DNA of 64,000 bases from Trichoplax sp. H2 (lineage: Eukaryota), in assembly GCA_003344405.1 (NCBI GenBank), contig NOWV01000142.1, positions 1 to 64,000 on the forward strand, given 5' to 3'. Below, piece by piece: positions 13,109-59,454 of the stretch. Made by a program: the position numbers and the translations under genes. How positions within the stretch are numbered: the stretch's first letter is position 1; each line of letters begins with the position of its first letter. The notes beneath the pieces were generated by a model. It was not told the origin of the DNA, searched no databases, and saw only the letters and a program-made list of their open reading frames with translations.

Positions 13109-15172
13109 TTACAGGTATTCAACGTTATTTTGGTTGCCAGGATTGGCAGGCCGAGACGACTGAACCTGATTAACATAGGGTGGATGTCCTTGTGGATTGA
13201 CTACCATCGATTGGGAAGCATTACCACCACCGCCTGCTGGAGCACCAGTAGCAGGTGCTTGATCATGTTGCTGCTTGACCATAATGTATCCTGGCATAGG
13301 TTGATGAGATGTTTGATAATATGGAACGAAGTATCCTCCTGCAGCAGCCCCATGTGGTGCCGATTGATTTGACATCACTGAAGGCATCGTTGTTCCGTTA
13401 ACAAAAACTGGCCCACCGGTTGCAGCCATAGTTGGGTAACTGTAGATCTGATTGCTGTTCATAACCTCGGTTGTCATTGGCCTCATCGAACCACTACCAC
13501 CTTGCATGTCAACACCTCCGGCAGCTCTCTGATTGGCAACAGCAGCAGCAGCAACTGCTGGATCCATAGGATATGTAGATGTAGGCACTGCAACGAACGC
13601 CCTGAATACGTACAACCAATGAAAACCATGTTAATTGTATAGAATGATAGATACTGTGTATCCAAATAAAGTTATTTATTATCTATCTCATCCAGCAATC
13701 ATAACAGCTTCAATTCGAAAGGAACTTGTTTGCAAAAATGAACACATAGCATTTAGCGTTGTAACTTTGTCATAGTACAATTTTGATATGATGCGACCTA
13801 TTCAATATTAAAATAGTAGATTGCCAAGGAACACCAAAATGCGAATGATCTATTGCCTATAGGATCGCCGATCAAGCAATCGTCTATAACTATAGCCAGA
13901 TACAGTAAACTATGTACAGTAGCAGCTCGTGCCCATTACCGGTGTACTGTATGGGTTGGTATATCGTTAAATAGGCCATCGATAGAATAAAATAACTTTC
14001 CTACATGTTAACACTGAATAGAGATTGAATCATGAAATAAATTACGAAATTTGATGCAATACCTAATTGAATAGATGAGGCTACACGAAAGTTATTCATA
14101 ATTGACAATGACTATTTGAAAATTACCAAATACGAGATTGGATTTCACGCATAATCAATTAAAATGATATAGTATCATAAAGAGTACAATCATCCATCTC
14201 CAAACTAATCTTTATCCTTGCAGTCACTGCTACAAGCTTCAATATATATATATCTGTTGCATGAAAGGATTCATTCGATTGATATCAAGTACTTACTGTA
14301 ATTAACTAAACGACAAAGATTAATGAAAGCAACTAGTACGGCATATGACTTATACAGTACAACGTCAATGCTGTAAACAACCCTTCAGTCTAGAATGTAT
14401 TGCAAATTGAATGCGATAGTAGTACCCTTAGCTGTAAACTCTCACTATCGCAGACTGAACAAACTCGATGGTAACACTTGTAAACAATTGTTGCGTTTAA
14501 AAGAAAGCTACATGCCGGTAGAACAGCTTGTAGCGACTGTAAATCAATGATTGACACTGTTTTAGCGAAAACAGTTCAAGTGCTCTATGGCCAATACGTG
14601 TAATATATATCATCAAGTATGATGGAGATTTTAAAGGTGAGCACGAAAGGCAGTAAAAAATGAAAAGAAATGTTATGATTAATCCTCCAGGTAAATCGCT
14701 ACCATTTGGAAACCACACTCAATCTCAACTAGATTAATGTACGTCAACATTTATCATTGGAAACTGTGTAACAAACTTGAATAACATGAGTCGCTTTTGA
14801 CGGCGACAACAACAGCATTATGCCGTATACAATCCATAAAACAACACTATTTTTTTTTAACAATATACATATCCACTTATAAAGTACACTAATTTACCTA
14901 TCTTTCTTTATTAATGATTTGGGCTTACGACGAGGTCGATACTTGTAATCTGGAAAATCTTTCATGTGTTGAGTCCTTAAATGTTTGGCTTCATCAACAA
15001 ATGGCCTCTTTTCAATGTCAGATAGCATCTTCCATTCTGCACCTAAGCGCTTACTGATTTCAGAATTGTGCATTTTAGGATTTTCTTGAGCAATTTTGCG
15101 TCTTTGAACTCGCGACCATACCATAAAGGCGTTCATTGGACGCTTAACGTGATCACTGTTCGACTTTGACAT
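13109..15172 (-). CDS. SoxB2: SoxB2-group HMG-box transcription factor (Sox14/Sox21-like), 2 coding exons, ~255 aa
   Basis: Exon 1 (15172-14898) encodes [47 protein letters not shown]...[17 protein letters not shown]: a complete SoxB HMG box, a short [13 protein letters not shown] start as in Sox14/21, and the group-B KKD(R) motif. Donor AG|GTAAAT at 14897 and acceptor TTCAG|G at 13602 are both phase 2 and join in frame to exon 2 (13601-13109), an Ala/Gly/Gln/Pro-rich C-terminus. Confidence 0.9.
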
Positions 15173-18100
15173 GGCTATTTAGAAGAGACGTTAGTGAATG
15201 CAAAATAATAACAATTAATCAAGTAGCATTACAATCTTTTTTAACAAGCTTAAAAAGTTTTGTATAATTCTAATAGAAAAAAGGCGCTGCATATTATTTT
15301 AGGGTATGCAGTGTACGACTATGTCTAAGTGAGTTCAACATTCAAGACTTTTAAAGGAAAGTTCAATTTCACATTGAAAATAAGGAAATATGGAGTACGA
15401 AAATAAGAATGTTAATTGCTTGTAATGCAATAACTGGGCTATTCTATTGTATGCCTGTATCCATCATGATCAACGATAACATAGGACGATAACTAGGAAA
15501 AAATTGGTCCAGTACACACATACATACACATTAATATCAGCCCCCAAAAAAGCAGTGGTGGAAATGTGCGCTACAGTAGGCTGTATGAGACGTACCTTTC
15601 TGTATTTTTCTTTCTTTTTTGGGGGGGGGGACAATTAATAACTGCAAGATTTGCTTTCAAAGTAATTGATTGCAAGCTACGTCTAGCGTTGAAGTTGTAT
15701 TGATTCTTTGTATGATGATGGTTGAATAGAATGGAGTAGTTTATCCTATAGGTTTGAGCTTGAATTTCTTTCCACTCTTGTACTGGATTGACAATCTACA
15801 TGGTATGGAATAATCGGCCGTCAAAAAATAAATCATGACAGTGATCGTCGTTAGTGTCAAATTGAAGCTAACAACAATATGCTGGACGCTATCTTATGAA
15901 TGTTCTATGACTGAAATAATTGGTTTGAAGCAAATGAATGTCAATTGAATCATTTACTCAAAACATAGGCAAGTTGACATTGAAAAGTGGCATGGACAAG
16001 AAATCAAGTCCTACATTGATAGTAGCCTCAATAAAAATTTAAAATTGACATACAAAAACACAAGGAAAGGTTAAAAAGTCTATAAAGACGATTAAATTAG
16101 ATCCAGTTAAAAAAAACATAAAGACAATTAAACTAGAGTACACCAACAATACAATGAAAGAATGTCCAAAGAAAAGGAGGAAAAATGATTTCAAGTCGCG
16201 TTGTATTGAAAAATGCAATTACAAGTGACGAGTGGAAAAAGCAATGGCATCGCTCCATTGCTACTACTATTAGCCGACTGACTACTTACCGTCCTGGCGG
16301 GATAATCGTTTCATGCAGTATGCATGAACAAATTACTCTTTTTTAAGGGTTCCCTTTCCCTCTCTCTCTCTCTTCACTGAGGCAAATTTTTTCTGTTTTT
16401 TTTTTCTTTGACAGGGATCAACTTACTACTGTGAATGAAGCTGACTGGCGACATTCAACAGTTGAAAAGAATGCAATTGAAGCGACAAGAACAAAAGGAG
16501 TTGGTGAAGAAAAGAACGATGAATAGAATAGAAAATTGACTCGTCTTTATGCTTCGCTACTACAGTAGTTCAATCCTATTGATCAACGTTGCGCCTGACA
16601 ATCCAATCATTATTCTTAGAGCAAAGCAGTTGTATTATCTCCATTCTTTTGTTCACTCAATCAACGATACTGCTATTGACCGTCAATGAAATCGCTTGGA
16701 CTGTGCGTCATTCGATACGGTACTGTACGTGGTGGAGTCGGTTCACTCCACCGCGGGCAACCTACACAATACATAGAATAAAGGACTACCATTCAAGTGA
16801 CAACAGTAGACGTGTCGACATGATCATTGTTTTCAATCATCACGGACGAGTCAGTCGACACCAACTCACGATGCAGGAATCTAAGCGTAGACGATGACGA
16901 GAATGCCATTAGTTAATTTGCGTAGGCATTCCATCTCCAATTGGAACTGACTTTATAAAATGCTCATCCTTTATTCAATATGTCAAAATAGTCAAAGCGT
17001 TGGACACCGATAAAAACAAATTGGAGGGGGTAATGATGGTAGAAACCGCTTTGCTTTTTCCAACCAGCAAATGAATAAAAAAGCGCGGGCTCACCGATAT
17101 GCCTACTCAGACAGCCTTCGATACTGTGGATGACGTTTTCTTGCGATAAGCTACAATGTCCTTCTATCCGTCTGTCAAAACGAGTGGGACACTGGCATTC
17201 AAAAAAGAAATGCTGTAAAAAAAAAAATGTACGCTATCTCCACAAATGGAGGCCAATAAAAATAAATAAAAATACAGTACGGCCGACAACATAATCTAAG
17301 TATAGCAAACGATCTTCATATTGTCATATTGATTATTATAATTTCAAATGAAGCATTTTCCTATCAAACAAGACAACAATAACGCCAAACCTCAATGGAA
17401 ATAGCGATGAAGATTAATATGGCATGAAGGGGGGGGGGGAAGAGAGAGAGAAAAGAAATTATTAGAAAGTCTATGCTGTATACTGATTAATGTAGAATAC
17501 AGCAAGAGGGAGAAAATAGAAATTCATGTTTAGAAAATAAAATAAAAATACAAGGTTGTGTATTAAAAATAGAAAACATCCATAGAAAAATATATAAAAG
17601 GTTCTCATTTCTTTTTTTTCTTTTCTTCTATTTCATAAATTTAATAATCTCTGCTATAAAACGCCAAACCAAAGGCAACAACAGAGAATAGAGATAAAAT
17701 TCTATTAATACGTAGTGTAATTGATTTTTATTTTTTCTTTTCATTCACAACTGTTTTCATTTTTATTGCATACGACTAATTGGTAGTAACGAATTAACAA
17801 AAGTCTTCCAACTACGGATTACAACCCATGTTCGCAAGCGAGTCAATTAAGTTACGATAGAAAAGGACGGATTTAAACAAAATGACTTACACAACATATA
17901 AACACCAACAACCAATGCATCATCATGCTGTAGCTACACTACAAGTAGTCTACAACATGACCAATCGATTTGTCTGCCAACGTAACAGGAAATCTAAAGT
18001 AATACCTTCATTAAAATAAGATGTACGTAACCCTTTGAGTTGGATTGCTGCCTACAGTACACCCACACTGGAGTAGAAACACCGATTTAACGTTGTATCC

Positions 18101-21100
18101 AATTATCGTTACTTTTCAAATTGTACTCATCGTTAACTTTCAAATATGCAACATGGTGATGCATCGATTGTAGTCGTTGTGAACAACTCGTACAACTTCA
18201 GGTGGTTTCCATTGACCAGGAATAGATTGAAACAGTCAATTGATGAATGTGCATAGCATGTCGCTATCCGATCGAATGATTCTACTTCTAGATACGTGTA
18301 CAATGTCCAACTTTTGAGGCACAGGCGTACATTAATCAATGACAAATCGAAGCATGAATTTGCATGCTCTTATCATCAGCCCTACTTTTATTCTATGCTG
18401 AGATGGTGTCCAAGCTATAGTACAATTGATTAAAGCAATCTTTTCTGATTCTCCATCGATTGAAATAGATTCCCATTGCGATTTGACTGTACTGTACCAC
18501 CAGGAAATGCAATATAGCTATAAACAGTCCATGAATTCAAAGTGACCAAGAGAAAGTCAACTTCAATGAATCGATGTATCGTCTTCATTTTGGGTTGTTG
18601 TCTGAAGGGTAAGAAATCCATTTAAGAAAGGAGTCTACTGTATTTTGCTCTATTGGTGAACAAGTTGTAATCGATCGAAAGAGAGTATTTGATGAATTGA
18701 TGACAACTCAATTCACCATGACTTAAAGTTTGAAAAGTCAGAATTGCGCCAAAAAGTGACGTACTAGGTCAATCATGCCACCGACATGGCCTAGATCAAA
18801 CATGCAAACGTTGTTGTATACAAAGGAATACAAGGATGCGAAGTCCAGATTCTCACGTAATATTATCCAACTGCCCCATCATGTCTTCTTCTACAAGCGT
18901 GAGAGGTAAGCACATTAGGTGAAAGAAGGAGAAAGAATATCATTGGACGAGTCGCCCCCCCTCACCCCCCCAAAAATCAATCGTCGACAGTATACATGAC
19001 ATTCTCGCCGTTAGCATCGATGGACAATCTTTGATAAGGCATCGATAGAGTAGAGTCTACAACTTACCCACAAAGTGGTGCAAATGAACGTTGATTGATG
19101 AATGTGTATCCAGGCTAGATGGCAATAAGATCTACCACGCGGTTGTTGGAAGGAACTCTTTGGCCAAACTAGTTGAACAATTTGAATAAAGAAAGCAATC
19201 AATTAACCACAGTATTGAAGGAAATCATTCACATCATGTTATGCCACTTTGTTCACTGACAACTGGTATAAGCTTCAGTAATACTGTCGACTTGTTCTAC
19301 ACTCTTTCAACTGTTGCTCGACTCCGCTTTAAATATCCAATCAACTTGATGCAAAATGGACCGTTATGGCCTGACGAATATGACAGAAAAAAAAAATCCA
19401 CTACTCACCGTTAACGGATTTGCGTGAAATAATAGCAAGTCAATGGTGGACGGGTTGAGCTCAACTCTTGCCGTGCTTGTTACTACGTACAATGTTGCTC
19501 GATCGATGCTACTGAGAATAGAATGAAACACTCGTAGTAGACAAGCGTTGCCTGAAATTTGCTTTCTACTACTGATTGGACCGGGGGCTTTTTGCTCTAT
19601 TTGACTCCACACTATATGAGGTAATTACTACTTAACGGCAAATGGCTTTTGCTTACACAAATAAGTAATGAGAGAAGAGAGGAGGAGAAATAAAAATAAC
19701 ACCGTCCCAATAATAGCTGACAATTATGATGAACAATAGGCGGATTGATTGTATTCAAATAGTTCAATGGAATAATACAATACGAGTAGAAAAGGTTACG
19801 CATCTCATCGCTTCAACCGACTGCAATGTATGTCAATCAATCATTCATTGACCAATTATAGTCGTCAACAATAGGCTTGCACAAAAAATTCCATCTGTTA
19901 CTATGGGTGGAGGTCTGCAACATAATGATAATAATAATAATAATAATAATAATATATTAATTAAACGTCAGTCCACACCGTGGAGATAGGGAAGAAAAAC
20001 TCGACACTGAGATAGGGGAGAAAAATAGCCAGTATAAACTACGAGTACAGGATTCACTAAAGTAGAGTGAACAGGAATAAGAAGATGATATCTTGTAGCG
20101 TATTCCTCTAGCCAACTTATTCGCCATGTCACTCATTCTACTGACTATGTACAGTATATTGTACATTCTTCGTAGTCCACTCTTGTGTCCACATCTGCAC
20201 CACTATACATCATCATCACTTTGAAAAGTTAGCCGACTGCACAAGTTCGCAAACTGCTGACTCCAGTACTTACAGTACTTCGCTGTGAATCCAATCATTT
20301 TAAATATCATTCACGGTAAAGTGATATTGGATTCACTCTGAAAGATGCAATCATCCCCCCCCCCCTAAAATGCAAAAATAACAGTCCAAATGATCCTAGT
20401 TGTACCACTAAAGTTCGCACGAGTACGAGGCCTCACTTCATTATTCATTTCAACTCATTCAACACTTTACATTTCGAATATTGATTTTTGACTGTCGTCC
20501 CAATTTAGACATGTGATAAAGTAATTAATCATATACATCATCAATGTAAACTGCCGTCCCTTTCCCTTGCGCATAAGAATGAAGAGGGACGCCTTACTAT
20601 GCAATCACTTTGTTATAAAATCCATGATAACTATCCAATCTTCCATCATCGATATCAACAGTTACAATACTGGAGAACGAGAGCTGGTAGCAGGATCAAT
20701 TTGAAAATTTGCATTACTACCCTACTGCACCGTACGTAGATTGTAAGAGACGAAGCTGTGCCATTCAATTCACAAATATCATTCATAATGTTCACAACGA
20801 TCAACTTTGATCGTTTTGAATGCGTTAGTTATGCAAATGTACTGACGTATATCCAATTTCATTGCAATTTTATGTTATACTTTATCTGGTAGTTGAAATG
20901 AAATTAAAATGTTCCTCATCCTCCAATACAGGTATCAACAGTATGCGTAATCTATTTACATTAGTACAGTACTGTAGCCTAGACGTTGCAAATGACAACA
21001 GTACAGTACTCGTAGTTGATCCATGTACAGTAGTCAGTAAATCGATAGAGCTGCATAATTGTTCTCATCCAAAACTGATTTAAGATTAACTTGAATTGCT

Positions 21101-29442: not shown

Positions 29443-32400
29443 ATGGTAAGATAAAAGATTTAATTTTTATTTCAGCTCATATCCCTGCCATTAATTGTTC
29501 TACTTTTATATAACCAAACGACCATCGACTCTGAAAATATTTTAAGCACTTTTACTTTAAATACGTAAACGTCATTTATTGTTAATGCCAAAACTGCAAC
29601 ACGCCAAATTATAATAAAGATATTTCTAACGAAGGCAGAAATGGATAGGACATTCTCTGCCACCCTATCTGAATACTTAAATTTAATTTTAGTTAACTCG
29701 CACCACCCTTCCACAGATGATTATAACATGATTTAATCCGACATCAAATCCTAGATAATGATCGCCAAGTGCATATACTAACATACGATGTTGTTCCTAA
29801 TTTCGATTTAGTACGGTATTATCAATCATGTTTTTCAAGTCCTGGTGGAAGAGAGATTTGGCAAAGACACATGGCAACAGCTGAGGTAAAAAAGTTAAAC
29901 TAGATTCCTAATTCTCTGATACAGTACGAAAAATAGAGAAGGTAATTTCTGTCTCGTTAATAGTGCAGAAGAGTTTTAATAGAAATTATCATAGTTGATT
30001 TCTATCGGATGTGACCATCCTTACTTGCTATAAAAATTATTTTTATCGTAAAGATTTAATCCTTTTGCCTAATTTTAACTATATACTGGTATATGCGCAC
30101 TTAGGATATAACAAATAATTCTAGAATTTTTAGCACGGTAATACTGTTTGTCAAATAGCATATTGTACAGTAATTATGAATCACTTTAATAGAGATTATC
30201 ATCGCTGTATCATCTCCAAGTTAGGACGTATGTAGCATTTTAATTTACTACACAAAGTTACTGAGGCCACGACAAATTTGAACAATAGTACAAAACTATC
30301 ATTACATTTCCCTCACAGAATCTATTTTATATCGATAATTAAACTCATTTCTCGAAGTACTGTCCTGTATAAGTATAACACAGCATGACTATAACATTTG
30401 TAAGATTTGAGGCAAGATTTCAATTTGTAGATGTCTTAAGTGTTGATCAACCCGTAAAAGCTGCTGGAATAAATCTAAGCATCTATAAATAATTATACCT
30501 TATCCACATTAGCGTAATTTTACATCCCTTTAAAAAAATATCCGTGAAAGACGATTCATTTTTTAAGAAAGAAGGATATAGACTATCAAGAAAATCGGGC
30601 TGATACAATTTCCGGGCTTTTGAAGACATGAATCGCCTAAAGTACTATTTAGAGGTTGCTTTAGAAATATACAAGGCACTATTTTGATTTAACCCTTACT
30701 TGATATACAGTATAATAAGTACGGTATGCCTGCGATTATTCACTTGTTGTTGCCCATAACACCTTTTGTTTACGAAATTTCCAATTTGTTTGTAATAAGA
30801 TTGAAAACAAGGAATTATTTCTGCTACGATAATTCAACAGCTGCTATTTCTATTGATATGCTCGTATTACTGTAAAAGTAGACATTAGGCTTCTGTAGAA
30901 ATGTATTATTCATATTCACTGCGTCTTATATTAAATCCAGTCCTTATTGATAAATTCTAGTAAACTTCCATATTATGAGAATTCAATTTACCTTACATGA
31001 GTTTTTGAATATTTTATTTCAAACCGTTAATCCTTTATTGAGCTAATTTTACCGTTCGTCCAGTGATTGTAAAAGTATAGTTTGCTAACCAAAATGCTGT
31101 ATTCTTTAAACCTTTGATGTTTCTTTAGCAGTCGGGTTATTATGTCTTTACTTTCGATATATACTCTGTATATCTTGTTGATTGCGTAGCGTTATTCTTA
31201 ATTAAAGTAAGCATTACGTCACCAACATTGTTACAGATTCTTTACTATATAAATAGGAATATGCCAATGATTCAACACAAGTGATTTTATATACCTATAA
31301 CGGCAGAAGGTGCCACTATTTCTCCTCCTTACCTGCATTTAAATTATCAAACAAGGTCTTCCCCAATTTATGATGCAATTACTCCTTTGCCTAAGAAGCA
31401 TCATTCCCTACCTTATATCGATATTTGAACTATACATGCATATATTAAGCCAATTTATTAAAATAGATTAATATGAAATCTTGGAAATAGATGCAGCATC
31501 ACTACTGACAGCCACTTCATCTTATAGGATATCGTAAAATGTATTATTGCATAAATCATCCATTATAACCCATTTACTGTTCTAGATTATTTGTAACTAC
31601 TAGTAACGCTAATATACAAATACTAAATCATTAAAGAAACTAGGCCTTCAGTATAAGAAATACCCATATATCAAGCTAATTAGATGGCGTAAAATAGCAA
31701 GCATTTATTAAACTGACGTGATCCTAGGGCTACGGTATTTTCATCACTAAAAGCAACGCGTAGTATTCTATAAAAATATAAGACTTTTGGAAAGTTATTG
31801 TAATTCATTAAGATTTTGCGGTCAGCATGATATTTAATTTAATTTATTATAAAAAATTTAATATATAAATTGCTAATGAAAGCCATTTCATCAAATGCCA
31901 TGAAAGTGTTGCTGTAATATTAAACTTAATTGCTTAAGATAAATAAGAATCGTTGCTTCCAGGAGCGATATATAGTACTCTTAATGTGTCTGAAAACCAA
32001 ATATACGTTAAGATAACCTTTCCATCTATAGATTATTTGATCCTTGCCATATTCTAACTTTGATATTAAGATTCTAAAATGAGTAACGCTGTAATTTTTA
32101 TGTAATGTAGGAATAAAATAGATTGTATTCCGGAGAAATTTATCATGAAACATCCTTACGATGACAACATTACCGTAGACGTCGCTGAAGAATGTTCTAA
32201 ATTATTGGGTATATATTGATCTATAGATTAGTTGTGTATCCATACCTATAGCATTAATATATAATTGTAGTACAGCATATTAGAGGTTGATGTTAAAATC
32301 TTATAATGACTTCCTAATTTTCTATTTCTATCTTTCGCTGTTTCTCTCCAATATATCATTTACAGGTATTTCAGTAGATCAATTTCTAGAAACTTATGGA

Positions 32401-35400: not shown

Positions 35401-35561
35401 ATTTAGAGGATGATCCACTAAGGAAAAAATCGGAAACTGTGCCCCCTCTTTCTACCCTAAATCGGCAACTTGTTGATGATAAATTACCTGTCACTTCTAA
35501 TTGCTTAAATATGGTATCGTGGAAAGCATCTAATGAGCAAAATTCCTGTGTAATACAGTAA
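29443..35561 (+). CDS. Soluble guanylate cyclase, beta-type (H-NOX + PAS/H-NOBA + coiled coil + cyclase), beta2/atypical-like with C-terminal CaaX, 7 exons, ~665 aa
   Basis: Exons: 29443-29445 (ATG|GTAAG), 29812-29885 ([24 protein letters not shown]), 32111-32208, 32366-33615, 34121-34267 ([15 protein letters not shown]), 34996-35150 ([37 protein letters not shown]), 35291-35561. All introns are GT-AG with consistent phases; total 1998 nt. Motifs: NLNALHAHL (haem His), HYYSCR (YxSxR), FSDIVGFT. Confidence 0.92.
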
Positions 35562-40600: not shown

Positions 40601-43515
40601 ATCACAAGCATCAATATAACACATTATATTATCTCCTTCCATAACCTAACTACGGGCAACTAAAAGAAAATCTACTAGGTTTTCTTCTAATGGTACGTGA
40701 CCTAGCTCAAATAACTACATTATAATGTGCAACAGCATATTATGTCATTAAAAGAGGTAAGTATAATGTAATCCAATGACGGTAAAATAAAACACAAAGG
40801 TACTGACTATGATCATGACTTAAATTATCACGGTAAGTGATGATTAATCCATTCATTTACTTTTAAATAATTGGTATTGGATACAAGCGATGTTGCTCCA
40901 ACTTTGTACAAAGATAATATTGTAAATTATATCAGAATAAAGAGAAATAACAATTGAAAATGTAAATATCACGCGCTATTCGAATTTCCCATCTGCCCAA
41001 TATTAATTATAAGTACTGCATGACATAAGCATATGGTGTCATGTCGTTAGAGAAAATGAATTTCTATATAAAGTAATTGATTTGATTGAATACAGATTCG
41101 ATGGATGCAATTACAGTTATTGAGGAAACAAGGTCTGCGATTGACAAGCAATCTAAAACAAAATGATTTACGTGATGACCATGTTTTAGGAAAAGCTATC
41201 ACCCAACAACCAATCCTTGTAATGTGATTACTGTCGTAGCATAGATAAACAGATTCATTAATTATACAGTCATTGAAAGGTGTTAGATGCAATAACACCA
41301 AAAAATTGCTCTTGCACGATTTACAGTCAGCAATCTTACGCAAGAATGTGCCATACACTTAAGTCTAAACTTTTAAAGTACGAATGTCGCGCATATACCA
41401 TGCAAATACCGTTAAAAGCTATTCGTAGAGAATCTTATTTTGCGATCGTTAAAATGAGACTGCAACTGCTTTGATTCCATCAAGTCACCTACCCCTTGCG
41501 ATAGGTCCTCAAATTAAATGGTTACTATAGTATTTTTTATATGACTACTCATTCAAAACCCACGTTTAAAAGAAAAAGAAATGATTGCTGCAACAAAATT
41601 ATATCTATAGTTCTTTAACAGGGATGATGATGATCCAGTTAATTTTTCATATTCTTGTTCGTTTAATAGCAAGCACCTTGCGTTTACAAATTTTAGCGAT
41701 GCTAACCAGCAATACACGCATACTTTACGTCATAGATGCCAACTTTTTAGTACACAAACCCCAAATTTATAAATGATTTTAGAATCTTAACTATATAAAG
41801 AAGTTAAACAGCAAGAGCGCAAAGAATACAGAGAACGGGATTTTTATTGGGTTCATCTACTGTTCGATAGGGTGCAGTACTGAATCTCTATTTCCGTAGA
41901 CGTAAAGTCGGATAGTCAGACTTTAACATGGGCAGGGGTGATGACCAACCGTTCAGGTTTCAAATTTACTGTACGTATAAAAGTAAGCAGTCATGAGATT
42001 TTGCTGCAAAAGTAAATCTCTATTGCCGAATTATATAATTATCGGAATCCACGTAGCGCAATAGTACGATTAATAGTATGTAAATCAAAGAGTTACTGCC
42101 ATCTATGGCAATGTATCGTAACTGGTTAATAATTCAGTTCCAATATACCTATACGGAATTAATTAATTACCCAGTAGATCTTTAACAATTTTACTAGGCG
42201 ATCTCATTTTGATAGGCCTAAACTCCTTCATAGCACATCTCAAACCGCGATAACAATTATTTACTATTAGCGTGTAACTTAGTGAATTACTAGGATATGC
42301 TACCAGTAAAACTAATAAAACTAAGACTACTTCCATAAAAATAATTGATTAGACCCAAAAATTATTGAATTGGGCGACGGAAGACGAAATTGAACAATCA
42401 CTGTCACCCATTTACAATTAAATAAATAAATATATTATACTTGAATTACAGTTATATTGTATGAATAGGACTGTATAAACCTCAGCAAACAAGTTTAATT
42501 TTGGATGTCGAAAGTTATGCTTTAGTGTACAAGTTCTTTAGCAATTAAAGCAGTTCGCTTGACTATGAATGATCGTAAAATCCTGCAAACTCGGCATTGG
42601 CGAATAAGCAAAAACTTTCGGCCCGTCTTTGTGGAATATTGTTTTACAGTACTGTACTAGTATGAGGATTAGGGGTCGGTACGATACATTTACAAATCCG
42701 CCTAATACAGTATATGCTCAACATACGTCAATCGTTAGCTTTACTCATGTAATTCAAGTCGTAGACACGCTAAATCATGGATGACGACCATCTTGTTATA
42801 AAGAAAAATTATCCATGAACTATATAGTACAGTACTTGGCTATAGTGATAGGCTTTATTATTAGGTATACACGTTGATTCTATTCTTGGATCGCAATATG
42901 TGGTGGTAAAACGGTATCAGAATCGATCAACGATACTGACAGTGTCAATTTTTATAAACGCTAATTCATTATCTCTTGTAAGAACTATTGAAGATTTTGA
43001 TTGAGCAATGTACTGTGCATTATGTTGGGTAGTCAATGCATGATAGAATTATGGCATGAAATGACCAAGGATTACTTTGTGTTTATTTAGTAGCAAAACT
43101 GATCGTAGTAATCTACCAGTGAACTAGATCGATGTGTTTGATCCATAAATGCAGCAAAAGCCCTACAATAACTTTTTAGGTTACGCCTTCACTAAATCGT
43201 AAGCAATCACTATAGCGTCAATGATAGCATCAACGAGGGCATATGAAATTAATGTCAAAAGATGTTGAGTTTTTGACCGACGGTGATGGAAAAATTGATA
43301 TCAACACCAATCAGTAGAATTAAGAGACTTACTTTGATAGAATCGTAACAGGCAGTTACGAAGCCATTGTCGATTTGAATATTGTTACCAGGATGTGCGT
43401 ACCTGCATTCACCTTCATCTCGTGCACATTTGCTACGTAAAAATTCTCGACAAACTTCCACTTGTAGCCAGCTTGTATCTTTGCCAGTTGTAATATTGGG
43501 ATGAGTCATTTGCAT
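37665..43515 (-). CDS. mbl: Muscleblind/MBNL-family CCCH zinc-finger splicing regulator with four fingers (two tandem pairs)
   Basis: Exons: 43515-43333 ([27 protein letters not shown]...ACYDSIK), 40294-40109 ([14 protein letters not shown] + polyQ), 39872-39738 (...DRME), 39642-39343 ([23 protein letters not shown]...[20 protein letters not shown]), 38760-38722, 38162-38015, 37863-37769. Fingers have the C-x7-C-x6-C-x3-H / C-x7-C-x4-C-x3-H spacing typical of MBNL. The final exon is uncertain: read-through to a stop at 37751, or a spliced exon 37694-37665. Confidence 0.9.
38722..38760 (-). CDS. mbl: 39-nt phase 0-0 muscleblind exon encoding [13 protein letters not shown] (first half of a putative bipartite NLS); likely cassette exon
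   Basis: Acceptor TAATTAG| at 38761, donor ACG|GTACAC at 38721; in frame with both neighbouring exons; KRKLE resembles KRPLE of vertebrate MBNL1 exon 5. Confidence 0.75.
38776..38807 (-). promoter_or_regulatory. YGCY cluster (putative MBNL-binding intronic splicing element) overlapping a candidate branch point of the 39-nt exon
   Basis: Minus strand reads ATGCTATGCCACTGCTGCTGCCTAACGCTTGCTA: 7 YGCY in 32 nt, with a CTAAC branch-point consensus inside. Confidence 0.65.
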
Positions 43516-44694
43516 GATTGTTGTTCAAAATGGATCAACACTATCAACATGCAGAGGATAATGAATCTTAATAGTAAGAGAGAGCAGCGATGATTGTATT
43601 TACCGAATCAAGCTTATGCGTACGTAGTTGCTAGAGTGGTCGACAAGAGCGTTGAAATGGAAAAGAATAATCAAAAAATGTTATTCACCTTAAGGTTAAG
43701 AATCAATGTTGGGAATCGGCGATAATACAGTAGAAGGGGGAAAAAAAGAAAGGGGGAGCAAATCAGCAATAGCGTCTGTTACAGCGCAATTTTTGAAGAA
43801 AAGGGAATAGAATATTGAAAATTGTAATTTAGCTGGGTTGTATATCGCTTGACTACAACATCAAGTCAATGGAAGCTGTATTGGATCTTTCAATATATTA
43901 ATAGTATATTGTCCAAATGAGAAGACAATAACCAAATTGAAATTAGTTTAATTGAATATTGCTTCGTTGCGGGAGGGGTGCAAATTGGAATACGGTTAAA
44001 TAATCCTGGTCATACAACAATAGTATCAAGAGGGTAAAAGGACCAGCTGGCTTACAAGATATCCTTGCCGTATTGACGAAAAGGATGCAATACCAAATTG
44101 CCCAAAAAAGCAATGTCTACAATAAGCAATGACCTTAATTAAACAAGCAAAAGAAGCACAATTTGATACTATAGCATCGCAGTTGAATTTCAAAGTAAGG
44201 ACTAGCCAGTGTGCTTGGCAAAGCAACAAGTCGTTCAATTCACCAACAAACAGTATAGTCCAAAGTCAAAAGAAAGAAAAAAAATGCACTTTGCTTGAGT
44301 GAAAATGGTCAAAGTAAAATCAACCGCCAAGTACAAATAGTGTACTACAATCTGTCAACAAAGTAAAAATAAATCAAGTCAAATGGATAATTTCCAAGGA
44401 CTAAAGTCAAGTGGACCATTCGTCAAAGAAAAATGAGTGAAAAAATGCCAATTAAAAATGTTGCTCTTTTCGTCTTTGGCGATATTCCCTTTTCTTAGCA
44501 ATGCGGCGAAAAGCAGCAGCAGCGGAATTGGGACAGTGATAGTGTGAACGCGTGCGTGTGCAGCCTACATAAGGTATTGTAACGATTAGACGGCAGACGG
44601 CCAATACCGTAATTTAAGTAGATTTTCACCTGGCCAACATGACCGTGACTACATGGGTACAGTACCGACGGCACACGTACAACACTACAACGGT

Positions 44695-46347
44695 GTGTTG
44701 CAGTGACGTCAAGTTAGCATACTGTCGTACAATGGCGTTGGTGGTCCAATCATCCGCTAGCCCATCCGACGTCGACTCGATCCAGTCTCAGGTCGACTGA
44801 CAGGTAGAGACGGACGTTTCTCATGTTGTCACAGATCGATAGCACACACAGCCCCACCCTCACAGTCGGTTAATCTAGACATGGCAGAGCAAAGCTAGCT
44901 GCTACGCTTTCCTCTCCTAGTACTGAGCTTTTCACGTTCTGGTCTAGTTCGTTATTTATTGATGATTATGCGGGATAGAAAACATTTTAGTATTCAGGAT
45001 TCTCCATCTGATTTTCGCGCTTACTGGTCTAGTTAGTTATTTATTGATGATTATGCGGGATAGAAAATATTTTAGTATTCATAATTCTCCATCGTCGTTG
45101 CTACCATGCAATCACATCTTGCTCTTGTACCTCGAGAGACAAAGCTTAGCGGCTGCTAGCTGCTACGCTTTCCTCTCCTCATAAGTAACCGCTTCTAGTA
45201 CTGAGCTTTTCGCATACTCCTCTNNNNNNNNNNNNNNNNNNNNGTGTTGCAGTGACGTCAAGTTAGCATACTGTCGTCCAAGGGCGTTGGTGGTCCAATC
45301 ATCCGCTAGCCCATCCGACGTCGACTCGATCCAGTCTCAGGTCGACTGACAGGTAGAGACGGACGTTTCTCATGGTGTCACAGATCGATAGCACACTCAG
45401 TCCCACCCTCACGGTCGGTTAATCAAGACATGGCAGAGCAAAGCGTAGCAGGTTAGCGGCAGCTAGCTGCTACGCTTTCCTCTGCTAGTACTGAGCTTTT
45501 CGCATACTCCTCTGGTTATTTATTGATTGATGATTATGCGGGATAGAAAACATTTTAGTATTCATAATTCTCCATCGTCGTTGCTACCATGCAATCACAT
45601 CTTGCTCTTGTACCTCGAGAGACAAAGCCTAGCGGCTGCTACCTTCTACGCTAGTACTGAGCTTTTCGCATACTCCTCTGGTTATTTATTGATTGATGAT
45701 TATGCGGGATAGAAAACATTTTAGTATTCATAATTCTCCATCGTCGTTGCTACCATGCAATCACATCTTGCTCTTGTACCTCGAGAGACAAAGCCTAGCG
45801 GCTGCTAGCTGCTACGCTTTCCTCTCCTAGTACTGAGCTTTTCGCGTTCTGGTCTAGTTAGTTATTTATTGATGATTCTGCGAGATAGAAAACATTTTAG
45901 TATTCATAATTCTCCATCGTCGTTGCTACCATGCAATCAAATCTTGCTCTTGTACCTCGAGAGACAAAGCTTAGCGGCTGCTAGCTGCTACGCTTTCCTC
46001 TCCTCATAAGTAACCGCTTCTAGTACTGAGCTTTTCGCATACTCCTCTGGTTGTTTATTTATTGATGATTATGCAGGATAGAAAACATTTTAGTATTCAT
46101 AATTCTCCATCATCGTTGCTACCATGCAATCACATCTTGCTATTGTACCTCGAGAGACAAAGCCTAGCGGCTGCTAGCTGCTACGCTTTCCTCTCCTCAT
46201 AAGTAACCGCTGCTAGTACTGAGCTTTTCGCATACTCCTCTGGTTAGTTATTTATTGATGATTCTGCGGGATAGAAAACATTCTAGTATTCATAATTCTC
46301 CATCATCGTTGCTACCATGCAATCACATCTTGCTCTTGTACTTCGAG
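44695..46347. repeat. Near-identical tandem array (~165-195 bp unit, ~7 copies) plus a ~250-bp block duplicated across an assembly gap
   Basis: Unit TTATTTATTGATGATTATGCGGGATAGAAAACATTTTAGTATTCATAATTCTCCATCGTCGTTGCTACC...GAGCTTTTCGCATACTCCTCTGG starts near 44952, 45037, 45516, 45682, 45862, 46051 and 46247. Block GTGTTGCAGTGACGTCAAG... occurs at 44695 and 45244. Confidence 0.9.
45224..45243. other. Assembly gap (20 N)
   Basis: Run of N characters. Confidence 1.
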
Positions 46348-49300
46348 ATACGAGTAGATTTAGATTGCTCGAGGGTGCAGAGATATCCAACTCTATCATC
46401 GACTAGGAAAGACTGCCATCCTACGTCGAATCTACTGTATAAATGCAATCATAGACTCAAAATATCCCAAAGATAACAAACATTCCCCGACTAGGATGAA
46501 ATCAGGCATCATAAAATACTGCCCCTAAAATCACTTTCATCATAATTTGACATCCATTTTATCATTTCTCATCCATACTCGCATCAATTATATTTCATAA
46601 TTGTCAAATCATGAATAAGAAAGGCCATAATGGTGTTGGTATTTTCTCCTCATCGTAGCCAGCGCATCCATCCAAATGTATCCAAGCGTAGCCACATTGA
46701 ATGCTTATCCATGGATTATAATTAATTAATTTACCATGAAAATTGAAATAGTTAAAATGGAATATCAAGAAGGTATTATTGCATGGATGGAAGTTCACTG
46801 AAATATCACGTATATGACTCAAGATGGAACACAACAACCATCTCTATAAATACGCCTATTCAGAAGTTGACAGTAAAGCTTGCATGCCAACTTATGCATC
46901 ATTTGAATCATTTTATCACATGTTCATAGGAATAATTAAGTAATATATAAATAATAATCAATTGGCCAAATCTATATTATACCATCGTACATCATGTTTG
47001 CACAGCAATCAAAATAAAGGAATCTAGCAACGAATCAATATTTTTCATAATCGGTATGATAAATCCTTTTCAATTTTCTTGGATCGAGTACAATATGGTC
47101 TCAGCAGTTCTCAATTTTCCTCCTATGGACAATTGGTGATAATTTACTGTTCGTTCTAGTAAAGACAATCATAAAGTTTGCAACATACACATTTCCGGTA
47201 GAAATTGCCAAACTATGTGAACTACATATCAAATTTTCCGCTTCTAAATTACTTTTATACCTTGTACCGTTGCATAGAAATGTACAATGTACTGATCATA
47301 GTACTTTGTACTTTGCACTTAACCACTTTTTACTCTTTCACTTGGCTATATTTTTAGAGTGATCATCAACGATCGTTATTCCAGTCATAAAATGACCATT
47401 CTAATAGTCTCTGATACAGGAAGAGTGGCTATCAAATTTCTCGAATTAATGATTAATACTGTATAATGCTAACAGATTAATGAATCAATCGTTATGATCC
47501 AATATTTGCACACAATAATATAGCCCAGTTGGCAAGGCGATCAGAAAAGCTAAATAGTCACGTACACGTTGTAGCCCTGTTGTACAGTTACAGTAAAGGT
47601 ACATTAATTTGTATAGGTATATTACATTGTACGTAGAGCAACATACGTTATTTAAATACGAACAGACAGTATTAGGAAGTAAAGTTTATTGTTCGCCTAA
47701 TATCCTATAATATATTTTAATCAATGCATTCATTTTAGATGCTTGAATTATTTACAGCTTATACTAACTCAGTGCCATATTAAAGTACAAGATGTACGTA
47801 GTACCCTTCAGGGCACTCTAGTAATCGCTTCCTAAATAGACTCCATTCAGGAATATTAAAGTGGTGTAATCGTTTCCTTAGTAGACTCCATTTAGGCACA
47901 CTAAACTGACATGATCACTTATAATACTTTGTGTATTCCGAGTACCCCGCTGATTAGAGATAAAAATCATCTATGCTTTGATACCAATTGTATATCTCCA
48001 CTAAAAGTCAAAAATTCAAACTGCGACGCAGCATGCCATAAAAGAACGATTACATCATGCGGTGCAAGTGCAACTAGGATATCCATTAGAGTAATGTAAG
48101 ACATTTTCGTACGTAGGCATAGCGCTAAGTATCAGCATCTAGCTGTATCGTAGGCAGCCCAAGAATCCATTTTCTCCACTATCACTATTTTTTGCCTCCG
48201 AAAATCAGTATGCAGTTTCAGTTATTGCACACTACGAGTATCACAGCCTTACCTGCTGATTATCTGGCCGAAGCACTCAATAAGAAAATTGTAACTCGAA
48301 CCTCAAATATTATGCCACCGATTACTATATTTAAGCTACTAATGATAATCCTGATATCAGATCAACTATAATCTTGTTACTCGTTGCACATATGGGTATT
48401 ATCGTTTAAATAATCATATCAAAATAGTATCCAACCAAGCAGAATAGGCAACTTGCAGACTGGATCTATATGAATCGTGCGGTGAACCAATAAGCAGACA
48501 AAATCAGACGACAACTCTTGTTGCGAGGGGGCTGGAAAAGACGGAAGGGAGTAGTATTTGAGTAGATATTCAGACAAATCAAGAATACTAATAATATTAG
48601 TCGTACTTTTCACTGTTTACCACCGTTATATAAGGAATACTATGACAGTACAATATTTACATTAAGATAAAATGATCACCTTTAGCGCGTAACTATAAAC
48701 TCCAATCTAAATTTCTTGTTATCGAGATTGATCAAAGTTTTTCTCAATTTTAAATTACTAAATTCCAAAATAGATTTATAATGTTACGACCTCCTTCTTC
48801 TCATATAACAGCATGTAATGGTAATATATTTACAATATTGTTTATAGTGGCTATACTATTCACGTTTAACTGATACGACAAATCACCAATTCATTCATCG
48901 ATTGCAACAAATACTATAGCCGATATCAAATTGACAAATTTCATTTCATTTGAGACTTATCAAGACAGAAAGTGGTAGTTGCCAATATCTGAAACTTAAA
49001 ATCTAAAATCTTATCACACACTTTAAATTAAGATATCACATGATCCTAATTAATATTACACAGTAATCCATCAATTAAACTAATTTTGAAAACTATTGTA
49101 TTGAAATAGTTGTCTTAGCTTTAGATTGTGAACTACTGTGTTAAGTAATCAATATAAATTCCGTAGCAATCTATTACCAAGTGATTCTAAATGAAGGATT
49201 GTCCTGGAGCATATCATCATCATCTATTCTTTTCGATTAATGCACTTAATCATTCCAAAAGAAAGATACGGTCACGTTTGTATTGAAATAATTCAAAAGT

Positions 49301-54626: not shown

Positions 54627-57600
54627 TTAAGCATATACGCCATTAGTATTGGCGGTTACATGGGAAATATTGTCACTTACGTGATTTGATGGATGATCGT
54701 TGCCTTGAGGTGTAGGCAAACCTCCCGCATTAACGTACCAATCGACTCCAGGCTGCGTTGTGTTAATACCAGCGGTATCGCGTGCAGTTAAAGCCTTCGT
54801 ATTTGGGCCTTGATCAAAAGATGTATGACTTGGCGATGATTTACTATGGGTCTTCATATGTTTTCGCAATGACGAAGGATGCGTGTATGCCTTTTCACAT
54901 CCCGGTACTTTGCATATATATGGTTTATCAGAAGTATGAACATGCGAATGTTTTTTTCTATCGCTGGAATTGGCAAATCGACGACCACATCCTTCAAACT
55001 CGCATATAAACGGTTTTTCACCTAATAGCAATAGTGATATTATTAAATACAATACAGTTATTTTTTGCGCGCTCTGCAATATATCTACTTATCTGATTGA
55101 AATCAATTCATTAATCAATCATACTACTAGATATTATAGACCTAGACAGATATTACATTACGAGTTCAAATATTTACTTTCTCTTTGATAACAGAAGATG
55201 ATAACGAAGTATGGCTCAGTTAACTTATATAAAGAAGTACTATATCACCCATGATGGTAAATCAAGTAACATTAATTGTATCATTAATCCACGTGGCAAT
55301 CAATAATGAAGCAATCATAACGTTATATTATTAAATAAAACTCGTTTCATAAAATGTAAGAGTAACATAGCTGTTAGAGATACAATTGTACAATAGGATA
55401 GCATGCCTACGATAAAATAATTAATGAATGGGTAGCGATTCTTTATAAACCATTGATCAACTTTGATTTACAATATGCGCGTAATCTGTTAACGGATACT
55501 GTATACAAAGTAGGCAGGAAAAATAAGAGCGTTACTACTAAAACTGTATGAAAGTCATGAATCTATCTGATAAGCATTATCAAAGCCGCCAGTGGGAGAT
55601 ATTACAATTTGTCTACTTCATAAATAATAAATCATTTTCAACTTCAATCGTAAATCAACACCGAAGAGGTACCGGTAAATGTGCAGCATGCGAATTTTAT
55701 AACGTAAAATTTACCATGATTCAGGTCGTACTAAGTTATTTTCAGCGCACTCATTGAAAATAAAAACATCAAGTATAATCTCTTGTTTTCTACCGTTCAA
55801 AAATACTAATTTAAAAAATTGATAAAACTTGCCTGTATGAGTCCTCTTATGGATTTTTAGGTTTTCAGAGCGGGCGAATAATTTGCAACAACTTGGAAAA
55901 GGACATTGAAATGGTTTCTCACCAGTATGTACTCTAATATGGTTAACTAGCTTATATTTGGCTTTGAACGGTTTTCCAGCACGTTGACAGTTTTCCCAAT
56001 GGCATGTATGAGTGGTTTGATCAGGGGCTCCAACATGGTCAACATTTAAATGGGAAACAATTTCCTGCATAGAACCAAAAGTGCGGTTGCAAACCTTACC
56101 AAAACGGCTACTTTGACGGTCCTGGTTAATCCAGCGACATGTCAATTGCTCTTGCTTGGCTTGCGGACGAACAGTTGGTATAATAGAGTGAAATGAATTA
56201 TTTGGGTCGTGATTAATATGACCATGGGCGGATGGGTAATCGCTAGGTAATCTTTGAGCATGTTGATTTAAGCGAGAGTTTTGATCAATGTTTGAAAAAT
56301 CGGTAAGGGATGGAGCCAAACCTAAATGGATAAATTAGTTCTTGCTTTAATTTACAACTTAAGTATATTATTACACGAAATTTGTAAACGCTAGGGTCGG
56401 TAACGCTAGTACATTGAACTTTTAAACACCCATCTCTATCTTGACTGAACATAGCATAAAAATATATAACGACTACAATATAATCAGTCGTCATTATTGT
56501 ATTGATGAATTAGATTATATTACTACGCAGTCATGACTAAATGAGCCATCGATACCAATGTGAGACTATAAAACTATCGATAAGGCACCAACTATGAACG
56601 TATTCGTAATAATTATTAAGCAGTAAAAGCTAGTAGGATAAAATGATAACGCTAATCTACATCTAAAATAATAATCTTAGATCACACAGTACTACATCCT
56701 AGGTTCATTTTACTACTGTGCCAGGACTATGATACACTGCATGTGTACAGACACTCTCAGCACGTTACTGAACATCATATCAAATGATTACTCGCAATGT
56801 GTCTTGCTTCCTATATTATCACTATATCCAATTTAATTTACTAAAATGCAAGCGATCATTTTATCTCGAGCAGCAATTGCAAGTTAAAAAAATACTTAGT
56901 ATAGTCTAAATAGTTTCCTGTTGCGGCTAAACACTATATTACAGTTTATCGCCGAATGTGAGACGATGTTAAATAAATACAGTTGTACCGTGCAAATATT
57001 TACATTTTCTTTTATTTTAGCTCATTTGGAGGTGAAATTCTACTGTATTTCATCTTCAAATGTGAATATGGTCGGTCTCTAGATTCACCATTTGTTCAAT
57101 CAAGGATAAAACAGTATCCGTAGCAATGAAGCCCACTATGTAGCGAACTGTGTAAATCACTAACGGCTGTCCAATATAAGGGCTTTTTAAGCATAAATAG
57201 GTCAACATTTCAACTGATTCAGATGTTGCAAAAAGAGATTTCAATTTCTTTATATCATTAACCTCTCCTTCCTTTTAAAATGTGAAGACAAACACGCCGT
57301 CTTTAAGTGAATATGGATTCAAGCTGGCAAATGATATTTGCGTTTTATTGAGTTGGCCAAATTTGCAGAATCAACAAGTTAGTTAGCCGAAAGCACGCCA
57401 TTGCCCCGGACACTGATGTCCACTTTCTTAACATACTGTAACGTACGGTGGTCCATGCTATCTTAATCAATCCAAAATTATAATCGCTGGAGTTGTGCTA
57501 GCCTCGCTTATCATATACTGTACAGCTAAGGATTATTAGAATTTGCATTTAATAATCCATGAAATTGTGCCTATTTGGCACTTGTTGATCACGAAACGAA

Positions 57601-59454
57601 ATTGGAGGATTGAATCCGTGGATTTATAGCGACCTATTCTACTACTTACTCGACATGGTTGCTCAATCATTCACACTAATCCATTTCCCGCCTGATGAAA
57701 TACTTTATGAAAAAATTTATGGATTGTGCTGACCTAAACTATTCACCACTCAGATTTCTCTCTTTCTCCGCATGTCTATAGTACAGTGTACAGTATTAAC
57801 AAAAGAGATTCTTCTGATGAGATCTAAATGGCAAGGCTGCCGTACATGCAACATGCTTTCAATTGTAGATACAGCAAAGTAATGTAACGGAAATTTGTTA
57901 CTGTAGTGAATATTAGTAGTAATGTCATCGATGTTATAGCAGTGTATCAATCACAACGAACATCCTGAATTGGGTGGATAAGTGTATTGCAGCTCTCAAA
58001 ATGGCAACAATAGCTAACCAACTTCAAAGCATGTATATAAACAATCGAATCTCCTGTACTCGTATCTTCTGGAAGTAGATTAATTAATTAAGCACGATCG
58101 TGATTCTCAGTGCCATACGAATTAGTTAGGCACAATATAAATGATAACAGTTAATGCTATTTATTGGAGCATAGATGCTTTAAAGGAAAGTAATCTACTA
58201 CTTTGAATTGCATAGCCCAGCTGGGAGCAAAAACATCACACGCGTATTAGGACACAGGCCATTGGTGTTCTACTTTCTGAGGACCCCGTGCAAGCTGTTG
58301 TTTCATCGCGCTCAGTAAAACAAGTTATCTGCGTGCGTACTTTTCGAAAGTAGAATACCCTCAATCAAGATGATTTATGCCTAAAATGCAATCATTTACA
58401 CATTGGATGTCTCCCTGAGTGGAATATGTTTGCTTTCTTATCTTAGAGAAGTATCGTATCCTAGTGTACAGCACGCTACCTTATAGCACATTCATAATTA
58501 TGATCACCTAGCAGCGATCTTGGAATCTACTCGCTATACTGCATGACGCTATCTGCAGAATATCACTTCACTAAAATACAACTAAAAAAGACAAACACAA
58601 CCTTCACGTAGTTCAATTATATTGATGGTGAACTAAAAATTGATATATCAAATAGTAATTGGAGGATGACTGATAGGAGAAAGTTAAATAGAAATGAAAA
58701 GCAACTGTTAGGAAGGCGTAAATTTGAATTAGAATCATTATAAGCACACCGGAGGGGTCACCACTCTCTACTGTGCTATTAACGAATCACTAGTGCATAC
58801 GATAGTATAGATTATGATATACAGTAGCGTGTCATTGGAAATTGTCAATTTGTGATTTATAATTAATACGATAGCAACAACAAAATGGTTGGGCAAATTA
58901 TTACTAAGCCCGTAATGTATCCAAGTCGATCAATATCCATACACAGTCAAAGATAAGCTTTACACTACTTTTTAATCATATTTATCTGAACAGAATGGTT
59001 TACCTGGGAAAGGCGGAGGAAATCGGGGATCTCGCGATGATGCGATAACAAAATCGCCAGTTAAATGCCTCGGATGAGTAGGATAATGAGCAGGAACTGA
59101 GTGAGGGGGTGGTGGCATTTGGTAGGTAGGATTGTGGATCGGAGCAGCAGAAGTAGTAAATGATGGCTGATTGGAAGCCTCATTTAAACTTTGATGACGC
59201 ATAGCATCGAAATAGGGATGAATGTTAGACGCAGTCATCTGTGGATCTTGTCCAGGATAGTCAGGCATTCTCATGGTAGGCGTATGTTGATGAATGAATT
59301 GGCCAAGCACTCCGTTTGGCGGTGGTTGGCAATCAACAGGCGGCGGAAAGCGAAGTGAATTCGTCATCGTATTCATGTTGGGATGATGTTGGACTGATTT
59401 ATTCATCGTTAATAATGATGAATCTCCACAATTCATTACTAGAGCGCTGTTCAT
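54627..59454 (-). CDS. Zic: Zic-family C2H2 zinc-finger transcription factor, 3 coding exons, ~444 aa
   Basis: Exons: 59454-59004 (Pro/His-rich N-terminus, donor AG|GTAAAC), 56321-55833 ([10 protein letters not shown]...[17 protein letters not shown]...[45 protein letters not shown]), 55021-54627 ([59 protein letters not shown]). Five Zic-diagnostic fingers; all junctions phase 1; total 1335 nt. Confidence 0.93.

Follow-up and report, generated by a model that had tools for sequence, protein, structure and literature searches.

Four genes, a SoxB gene, a soluble guanylate cyclase gene (sGC), a muscleblind gene (Mbnl) and a Zic gene, lie within 46 kb of DNA of the placozoan Trichoplax sp. H2. 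The window analysed here is the whole stretch of 64,000 nucleotides that forms positions 1 to 64,000 of contig NOWV01000142.1 (assembly GCA_003344405.1), and the four genes occupy its positions 13109..59454. We propose that the four families are members of a single ancient linkage group of animals and that their tight spacing in Trichoplax is that of neighbours within this group, not that of a selectively maintained regulatory block. Taken as a whole, this explanation, in which 13109..59454 is gene-poor Trichoplax DNA whose four genes are ordinary, intact and transcribed independently, has in our estimate a probability of about 0.7. A preliminary description of the DNA had read the locus as an ancestral linkage preserved as near-adjacent microsynteny. 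The linkage holds at chromosome scale, with four of four families together in the hemichordate Glandiceps and Sox with Zic in five of five species, but the near-adjacency is not seen in the other species examined (gaps of 59–1443 accession steps, defined below). Elsewhere the linkage is no tighter than that of one ancestral linkage group, the outcome named in advance as refuting a near-adjacent block kept in other animals.

Two proteins of one species were assigned to the same contig when their contigs had identical sizes to the base. By this label, Sox and Zic lie on one contig in all five invertebrates in which both are on chromosome-scale contigs: Glandiceps talaboti (25,030,103 bp, Sox–Zic gap 59 accession steps), Ptychodera flava (39,757,568 bp, 1443 steps), Haliotis asinina (83,060,790 bp, 920 steps), Haliotis cracherodii (63,398,646 bp, 836 steps) and Diadema setosum (31,778,656 bp, 110 steps). 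The Glandiceps contig holds all four families, with a Sox14-like gene and a beta-2-like sGC, and that of Ptychodera holds Sox, sGC and Zic; sGC is thus found with Sox and Zic in both hemichordates. In Sinanodonta, Mbnl and a SoxB gene lie on one contig of 114,841,230 bp with locus tags 350 apart. Among the informative chromosome-scale invertebrates, Mbnl and Sox share a contig in two of two cases, Mbnl and Zic in one of two, and sGC with Sox or Zic in two of six. The separations are those of Mbnl (53,322,705 bp) and Zic (71,201,966 bp) on different chromosomes of Pinctada, which speaks against a tight block, and of sGC and Zic in Mytilus edulis, M. galloprovincialis, M. trossulus (3/3) and Lineus. 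Some spiralians have lost the link to sGC, and Pinctada that to Mbnl.

Human relatives of the three regulators lie together in paralogons: SOX21-MBNL2-ZIC5/2 in 13q32, SOX14-ZIC4/1-MBNL1-SOX2 in 3q22-q26 and MBNL3-ZIC3-SOX3 in Xq26-27; GUCY1B2 is also on 13q, far from SOX21. Other vertebrates agree with the paralogon: Sox21 and ZIC5 share a contig in Xenopus laevis, SOX21 and ZIC2 in Lissotriton, and SOX21 and a beta-2-like sGC in Ambystoma, 395 steps apart. Several vertebrate pairs were found on different contigs, namely Sox14 with ZIC1 (Entelurus), ZIC2-B (Diretmus) or ZIC2a (Syngnathus), ZIC2 with beta-2-like sGC (Hoplias, Calonectris), Sox14 with beta-2 (Centroberyx, Arapaima, Polymixia), Sox19a-like with beta-2-like (Heterodontus) and Mbnl with Sox14-like (Lethenteron). 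These teleost, bird, shark and lamprey comparisons were left uncounted because vertebrate paralogy may pair members of different paralogons. That the vertebrate relatives lie together in the 13q/3q/Xq paralogons and those of a hemichordate on one chromosome points to one ancient linkage group, a chromosome-scale synteny that would hold Sox, sGC, Mbnl and Zic.

How close are the genes to each other in other animals? As a proxy for position we used the order of RefSeq accessions. Adjacent or tandem Zic pairs served as a control and were 1–2 steps apart in six of seven species and 14 in the seventh: ZIC5 and ZIC2 carry consecutive numbers in Mobula and Hypanus and differ by 14 in Hemitrygon, and a tandem Zic pair is 1–2 apart in four Mytilus species. 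In addition, the Sox–Zic gaps of the two Haliotis congeners, which were annotated separately, are near-equal (920 and 836), which indicates that accession numbers track position. Among the species examined outside Trichoplax, Sox and Zic were nowhere adjacent or nearly so, the smallest gap being 59 steps and the others 110–1443; Ptychodera and Haliotis show no Sox–Zic closeness at all. In fragmented assemblies, Sox and Zic fall on different scaffolds in five of five cases (Lingula, Limulus, H. rufescens, H. rubra and Diadema antillarum), the Sox and Zic scaffolds measuring 754,701 versus 228,429 bp in Lingula, 1,669,318 versus 316,000 and 175,623 bp in Limulus, and 1,727,240 versus 4,669,774 bp in D. 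antillarum. The families are tens to hundreds of genes apart, and in differing orders, in every other species examined.

The accessions also give an order within the hemichordate chromosomes. In Glandiceps, Mbnl is XP_077987304 and is followed by sGC (ending in 7635), Sox (7955) and Zic (8014); in Ptychodera, the order is Sox (37853), sGC (38451-9) and Zic (39296). The Glandiceps order Mbnl-sGC-Sox-Zic (P0445, P0125, P0025, P0347) equals the Trichoplax order Sox-sGC-Mbnl-Zic with the first three genes inverted. With four genes, this one-inversion likeness is not statistically meaningful.

Because the tight spacing is not kept in the bilaterians examined, we read the Trichoplax genes as neighbours in a linkage group: the spacing would be a feature of the compact placozoan genome, and the adjacency may reflect slow or chance local order and not constraint. 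Several points weigh against this reading. In Trichoplax, the regulators together take up 46 kb and two genes separate Sox from Zic, much tighter than random order in a linkage group of several hundred genes usually gives. The gaps of 59 and 110 steps in two ambulacrarians possibly reflect a residual Sox–Zic proximity beyond random order. The human sets are also fairly compact, SOX21-MBNL2-ZIC5/2 spanning about 5 Mb of 13q with about 20 genes from SOX21 to ZIC5, and the 3q and Xq sets about 8–15 Mb. Moreover, accession order is an indirect measure that stands in for genome coordinates of the other species; Mbnl was placed in three informative invertebrates (Glandiceps, Sinanodonta and Pinctada); and the comparison covered bilaterians only, with cnidarian, sponge, amphioxus and other placozoan neighbourhoods outside it.

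Could the locus instead be the relic of a tight ancestral SoxB-Mbnl-Zic cluster under a shared regulatory landscape, kept in placozoans and loosened in bilaterians by gene insertion and inversions? Such a relic would explain the adjacency of three regulators on one strand in Trichoplax, an Sox-Mbnl-Zic order equal to that of human 13q32, the short Sox–Zic distances in Glandiceps, Diadema setosum and human, and the position of sGC between Mbnl and Sox, also found in Glandiceps by accession order. We nevertheless consider it unlikely. The adjacency is seen in no non-placozoan examined, with 836–1443 steps in Haliotis and Ptychodera, separate scaffolds in all the fragmented assemblies and separate Mbnl and Zic chromosomes in Pinctada, and the block itself is interrupted by the gene of an unrelated enzyme, read from the other strand. 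The coincidence was spotted post hoc in one window of a genome with well over a thousand such windows, and a closeness of 59–110 steps has a chance of about 0.05–0.15 per species if chromosome totals of 1,500–2,500 steps, which are guesses, are assumed. Quite unlikely in our view is the version in which the last common ancestor of placozoans and bilaterians had SoxB, muscleblind and Zic side by side. Trichoplax would then keep almost intact a cluster of ancient, co-regulated ‘neural’ regulators older than neurons, of which the Sox–Zic closeness in a hemichordate, a sea urchin and the vertebrate paralogons would be a decayed remnant.

Alternatively, the arrangement could be a placozoan-specific accident, rearrangement and genome compaction having joined genes without any special shared history. 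The sGC gene fits this possibility best: it is unlinked from Zic in the three Mytilus species and in Lineus, and, Trichoplax having seven sGC genes as stated in a passage of PMC7400543, the copy at this locus may be lineage-specific. Four families on one Glandiceps chromosome and Sox with Zic in every informative invertebrate are difficult to explain unless such a linkage group was ancestral, and we regard a pure accident as very improbable.

Our preferred reading, of neighbours in one linkage group, sets the locus among known cases of synteny. Ancestral metazoan linkage groups were reportedly recognised in the Trichoplax–human comparison of Srivastava 2008 and in later chromosome-scale work, including Simakov 2022. 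As in such macrosynteny, the orthologues of the Trichoplax neighbours Sox, sGC, Mbnl and Zic are found on one chromosome of distant animals, with their local order scrambled. What sets the locus apart is that the Trichoplax members directly adjoin one another and that three of them regulate development and have vertebrate copies that are also fairly close together. The human paralogons contain the same three families, in 13q32 in the same order, but extend over megabases with some 20 or more genes between members, whereas in Trichoplax one or two genes separate the members and the locus takes 46 kb. The locus also resembles genomic regulatory blocks (Irimia et al. 2012, PMC3514665) in the gene-poor DNA around developmental transcription factors and in the unrelated ‘bystander’ enzyme gene between them; it differs from them in that the adjacency across phyla that defines such blocks was not found in the species examined.

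We found no paper that describes linkage of the three families in a literature search with synteny, paralogon and microsynteny terms. SOX14 and SOX21, MBNL1 and MBNL2, and ZIC2 and ZIC3 are listed as separate paralogue pairs only (PMC3595034). The main texts of three microsynteny papers (PMC3514665, PMC10719294 and PMC8851819) name neither Zic nor Mbnl, which their published supplementary block lists may hold.

What genes does the stretch contain? As the preliminary description had it, SoxB, sGC, muscleblind and Zic are all present at the places and on the strands given there, with the three regulators on the minus strand and sGC on the plus strand. The order is Sox (−) at about 11.6–19.5 kb, sGC (+) at 29.4–35.6 kb, Mbnl (−) at 37.8–43.5 kb and Zic (−) at 54.6–59.5 kb. 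Sox and sGC are divergent with 10 kb of intergenic DNA between them, and Mbnl is tail to tail with sGC. Pfam families matched seven of nine candidate exon translations; the two without a match come from the Zic N-terminus and from the low-complexity C-terminal part of Sox. The further claim that these are the only supportable genes stands with a caveat. None of 48 other stop-to-stop open reading frames (ORFs) of at least 70 amino acids matched Pfam at E<=0.01, and none of 150 ORFs of 45–69 amino acids outside the genes did so at the curated cut-off, in a scan that covered 150 of 179 such ORFs and left out 29 beyond 52.7 kb; two of the 150 gave sub-threshold matches (E 0.003–0.006), which is chance level. 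Rfam and tRNA scans of the window returned no match. An ORF scan against Pfam could miss genes made solely of short exons, or non-coding genes.

The Sox gene has a coding frame split by one intron. Its HMG-box exon (14894-15178, −) matches PF00505 at E 3e-27, and the closest solved relative is SOX2 (E 1e-44). The donor GT at 14897-14896 lies just past KKDR and the acceptor AG at 13603-13602; the spliced frame, from the ATG at 15172-15170 to the stop at 13109-13111, is open for 255 amino acids without an internal stop. This stop coincides with the start coordinate of the examined stretch 13109..59454. RNA contigs, examined over 15.6–35.6 kb, add two introns in the 5′ untranslated region (5′UTR), with joints 15795->19068 (runs X8, X9 and X6) and 19168->19409 (X8 and X6) whose CT..AC ends on the plus strand correspond to GT..AG in the direction of the gene. 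In run X6, one contig of 3091 nt reaches 19537, so the gene starts at 19537 or further upstream, and from the size of this contig the 3′UTR probably runs to about 11.64 kb. The transcription unit is therefore larger than previously described, and the corrected model, with one coding intron and two 5′UTR introns, is a by-product for annotation. Unspliced RNA contigs of X8 and X9, one of 3002 nt, cover 15767-18980 over the 3.27-kb first intron of the 5′UTR; they could be pre-mRNA, a retained intron, a separate transcript or DNA carry-over. Upstream of Sox, within a G+C-richer stretch at 16–22 kb, short RNA contigs of X8 and X6 at 21230-22721 show no joints and no ORF at the Pfam cut-off, and could be promoter-upstream RNA, enhancer RNA or noise. 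Expression was not ranked by contig depth, the interval of about 24–29 kb left uncovered by X8, X9 and X6 was not taken as silence, and run X5, which covers 27 of 30 bins, may hold DNA.

To which Sox subgroup does the gene belong? Among the best 120 of 7267 matches, the named ones are mostly Sox-14/Sox-21, with some SoxB1, Sox3 and Sox19. Identity to the best named matches is 76–86% among non-fused proteins and 61–75% in four of the top six rows, which are mis-annotated or multi-domain models. Ten residues precede RPMNAF in the Trichoplax protein, compared with 9–10 in vertebrate and hemichordate Sox14/21 and 31–43 in proteins named SoxB1, Sox3 and Sox19. In a quick maximum-likelihood tree of 39 rows, the Trichoplax protein falls on a long branch in an unsupported SoxB polytomy. 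The C-terminal part has no Pfam match and gave weak, composition-driven BLAST matches, to mollusc SoxB proteins with a long N-terminus (best E 4e-7 with composition correction off) and to SOX21 (E 0.007–0.06), from which no subgroup emerges. From its sequence, the gene is a group-B Sox with a B2-like architecture, the short N-terminus; of the SoxB2 label first given to it, the group and the architecture stand and subgroup B2 is plausible, the 39-row tree giving no supported placement within SoxB. A passage of Najle et al. 2023 (PMC10580291) puts a placozoan ‘Sox1/2/3 (SoxB)’ in peptidergic progenitors, which may or may not equal the window gene.

The sGC exon at 32284-33639 (+) encodes Pfam HNOB, HNOBA and the start of Guanylate_cyc, the cyclase domain ending in 35247-35561 (+). 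Its identity to TRIADDRAFT_19120 of Trichoplax adhaerens (on a 13,260,704-bp contig) is 100%, and six GT..AG joints of the gene are bridged by RNA contigs. The closest solved relative is sGC beta-1 (E 2e-75), with alpha-1 behind at 4e-56, and the best named matches are beta-2 proteins, those of two hemichordates at E 1e-99, versus 2e-70 for beta-1. In a 33-row tree, unrooted and without an alpha outgroup, a starred placozoan clade unites the protein with its paralogue TRIADDRAFT_24043 and falls outside the beta-1 clade, which includes a Nematostella protein, as well as outside the bilaterian beta-2 clade. The earlier beta-2-like label is plausible: the protein is beta-type and most similar to beta-2. 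In the unrooted tree, the placozoan clade falls in neither the beta-1 nor the beta-2 clade.

Aligned to human beta-1, the protein (P0121, 32365-35561) keeps the haem-ligand His and has YYSCR for YYSER (Y-x-S-x-R); we take these to be the haem ligands. It lacks two small insertions found in beta-1. Its catalytic domain contains FSDIVGF, whose Asp is the metal-binding residue of alpha subunits such as alpha-1 and takes the place of a Gly in beta-1; the domain also has Cys, Asn and Arg as in beta-1, of which alpha-1 is without Asn and Arg, so that one chain carries the full catalytic residue set. Beta-2 acts as a homodimer, and both residue sets in one chain are a homodimer-capable pattern, beta-2-like or atypical. 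The alpha-type Asp together with the beta-type Cys, Asn and Arg suggests such a capability, and, judged by these residues, the window protein could be active as a homodimer. The combination of alpha-type and beta-type catalytic residues in one chain is a second by-product for annotation.

Muscleblind is recognised by zf-CCCH_10 matches at E 1e-26 and 3e-12 in ORFs 39322-39642 (−) and 43255-43524 (−). It encodes an RNA-binding protein with two tandem pairs of CCCH zinc fingers (ZnF), ZnF1-2 being split over two exons and ZnF3-4 contained in one. The closest solved relative is MBNL1 (E 2e-28), and at E<=0.001 there are six solved relatives, each of them MBNL1, MBNL2 or a human chain without a name. 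Ten of ten representatives drawn from the best 150 matches have muscleblind-like names or are unnamed hypothetical proteins, the named ones coming from coral, hemichordate, lamprey, sponge and molluscs.

The Zic gene encodes five C2H2 zinc fingers (ZF) with a Zic-specific first finger, as judged from zf_ZIC (PF18366, E 2e-15), zf-C2H2_15 and C2H2 matches in ORFs 55711-56334 (−) and 54627-55088 (−). Exons 1 and 2 match ‘Zinc finger protein ZIC 4 [Trichoplax sp. H2]’ at 100% identity, and the closest solved relative is ZIC3 (E 1.5e-53), before GLI at 7e-30. One coding intron (55717/55022) interrupts the linker that joins zinc finger 3 to zinc finger 4 (HTG | EKPF). According to a passage of a 2026 paper (PMC13128682), Zic4 is enriched at the Trichoplax periphery. 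Exon positions of the four genes are collected in Table 1.

Table 1. Features of the 64,000-nucleotide window, with strand and the evidence for each.
Feature	Position	Strand	Evidence or remark
Sox, first 5′UTR exon seen	19409..19537	-	X6 contig ends at 19537; joint 19168->19409
Sox, second 5′UTR exon	19068..19168	-	joints 15795->19068 and 19168->19409
Sox, third exon: 5′UTR, ATG, HMG box, group-B flank	14898..15795	-	Pfam HMG_box, SOX2 relative, donor GT
Sox, last coding exon, Ala/Gly/Pro-rich C-terminal part	13109..13601	-	acceptor AG 13603-13602, open spliced frame
sGC TRIADDRAFT_19120	29811..35561	+	tblastn of P0121, RNA joints, Pfam HNOB/HNOBA/Guanylate_cyc
sGC exons	29811-29883, 32109-32207, 32365-33613, 34119-34267, 34996-35150, 35291-35561	+	a further 5′ exon ends at 29444
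Muscleblind	37754..43524	-	Pfam zf-CCCH_10, motif and ORF scan; exon ends from ORFs alone
Muscleblind, ZnF1 and half of ZnF2	43258-43524	-	CCCH zinc-finger exon
Muscleblind, rest of ZnF2	40097-40294	-	motif/ORF scan
Muscleblind, likely linker	~39711-39872	-	ORF scan
Muscleblind, ZnF3-4	39325-39642	-	CCCH zinc-finger exon
Muscleblind, possible C-terminal exons (candidates)	38010-38168, 37754-37903	-	ORF scan
Tandem repeat array	44695..46434	.	between muscleblind 5′ end and Zic 3′ end
Zic	54627..59454	-	tblastn of Trichoplax sp. H2 Zic protein P0241; Pfam zf_ZIC
Zic, exon 1	59454-59002	-	ATG at 59454, the end coordinate of the examined stretch
Zic, exon 2, ZF1-3	56322-55717	-	tblastn
Zic, exon 3, ZF4-5 and tail	~55022-54627	-	tblastn; ORF reads two further fingers

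Several repeats lie between and beside the genes. The array between the Mbnl 5′ end and the Zic 3′ end (44.7–46.4 kb), just upstream of muscleblind, consists of units of 166–193 nt in 3–7 copies, with 76–97% identity among the closer copies, and is the G+C peak of the window (0.43), whose G+C otherwise ranges from 30% up to this 43%. Two more direct-repeat arrays, at 226-1222 and 2299-2827, have units of about 105–115 nt in 4–5 copies each with 61–85% identity and are found in the left flank, which is free of genes. An AT-rich, trinucleotide-like microsatellite with ATA/ATG runs lies at 36590-36890, in the interval where sGC and muscleblind face each other with their 3′ ends.

As the evidence stands, the locus is a clear and tidy case of ancient chromosome-scale linkage that reaches from a placozoan to a hemichordate to vertebrates, as is expected of animal genomes. 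An ancestral origin of the tight block would make it a rare instance in which several unrelated developmental regulators have stayed together from a time before nervous systems. These 46 kb of a very compact genome would then also be a well-defined place to test how regulatory landscapes constrain gene order.

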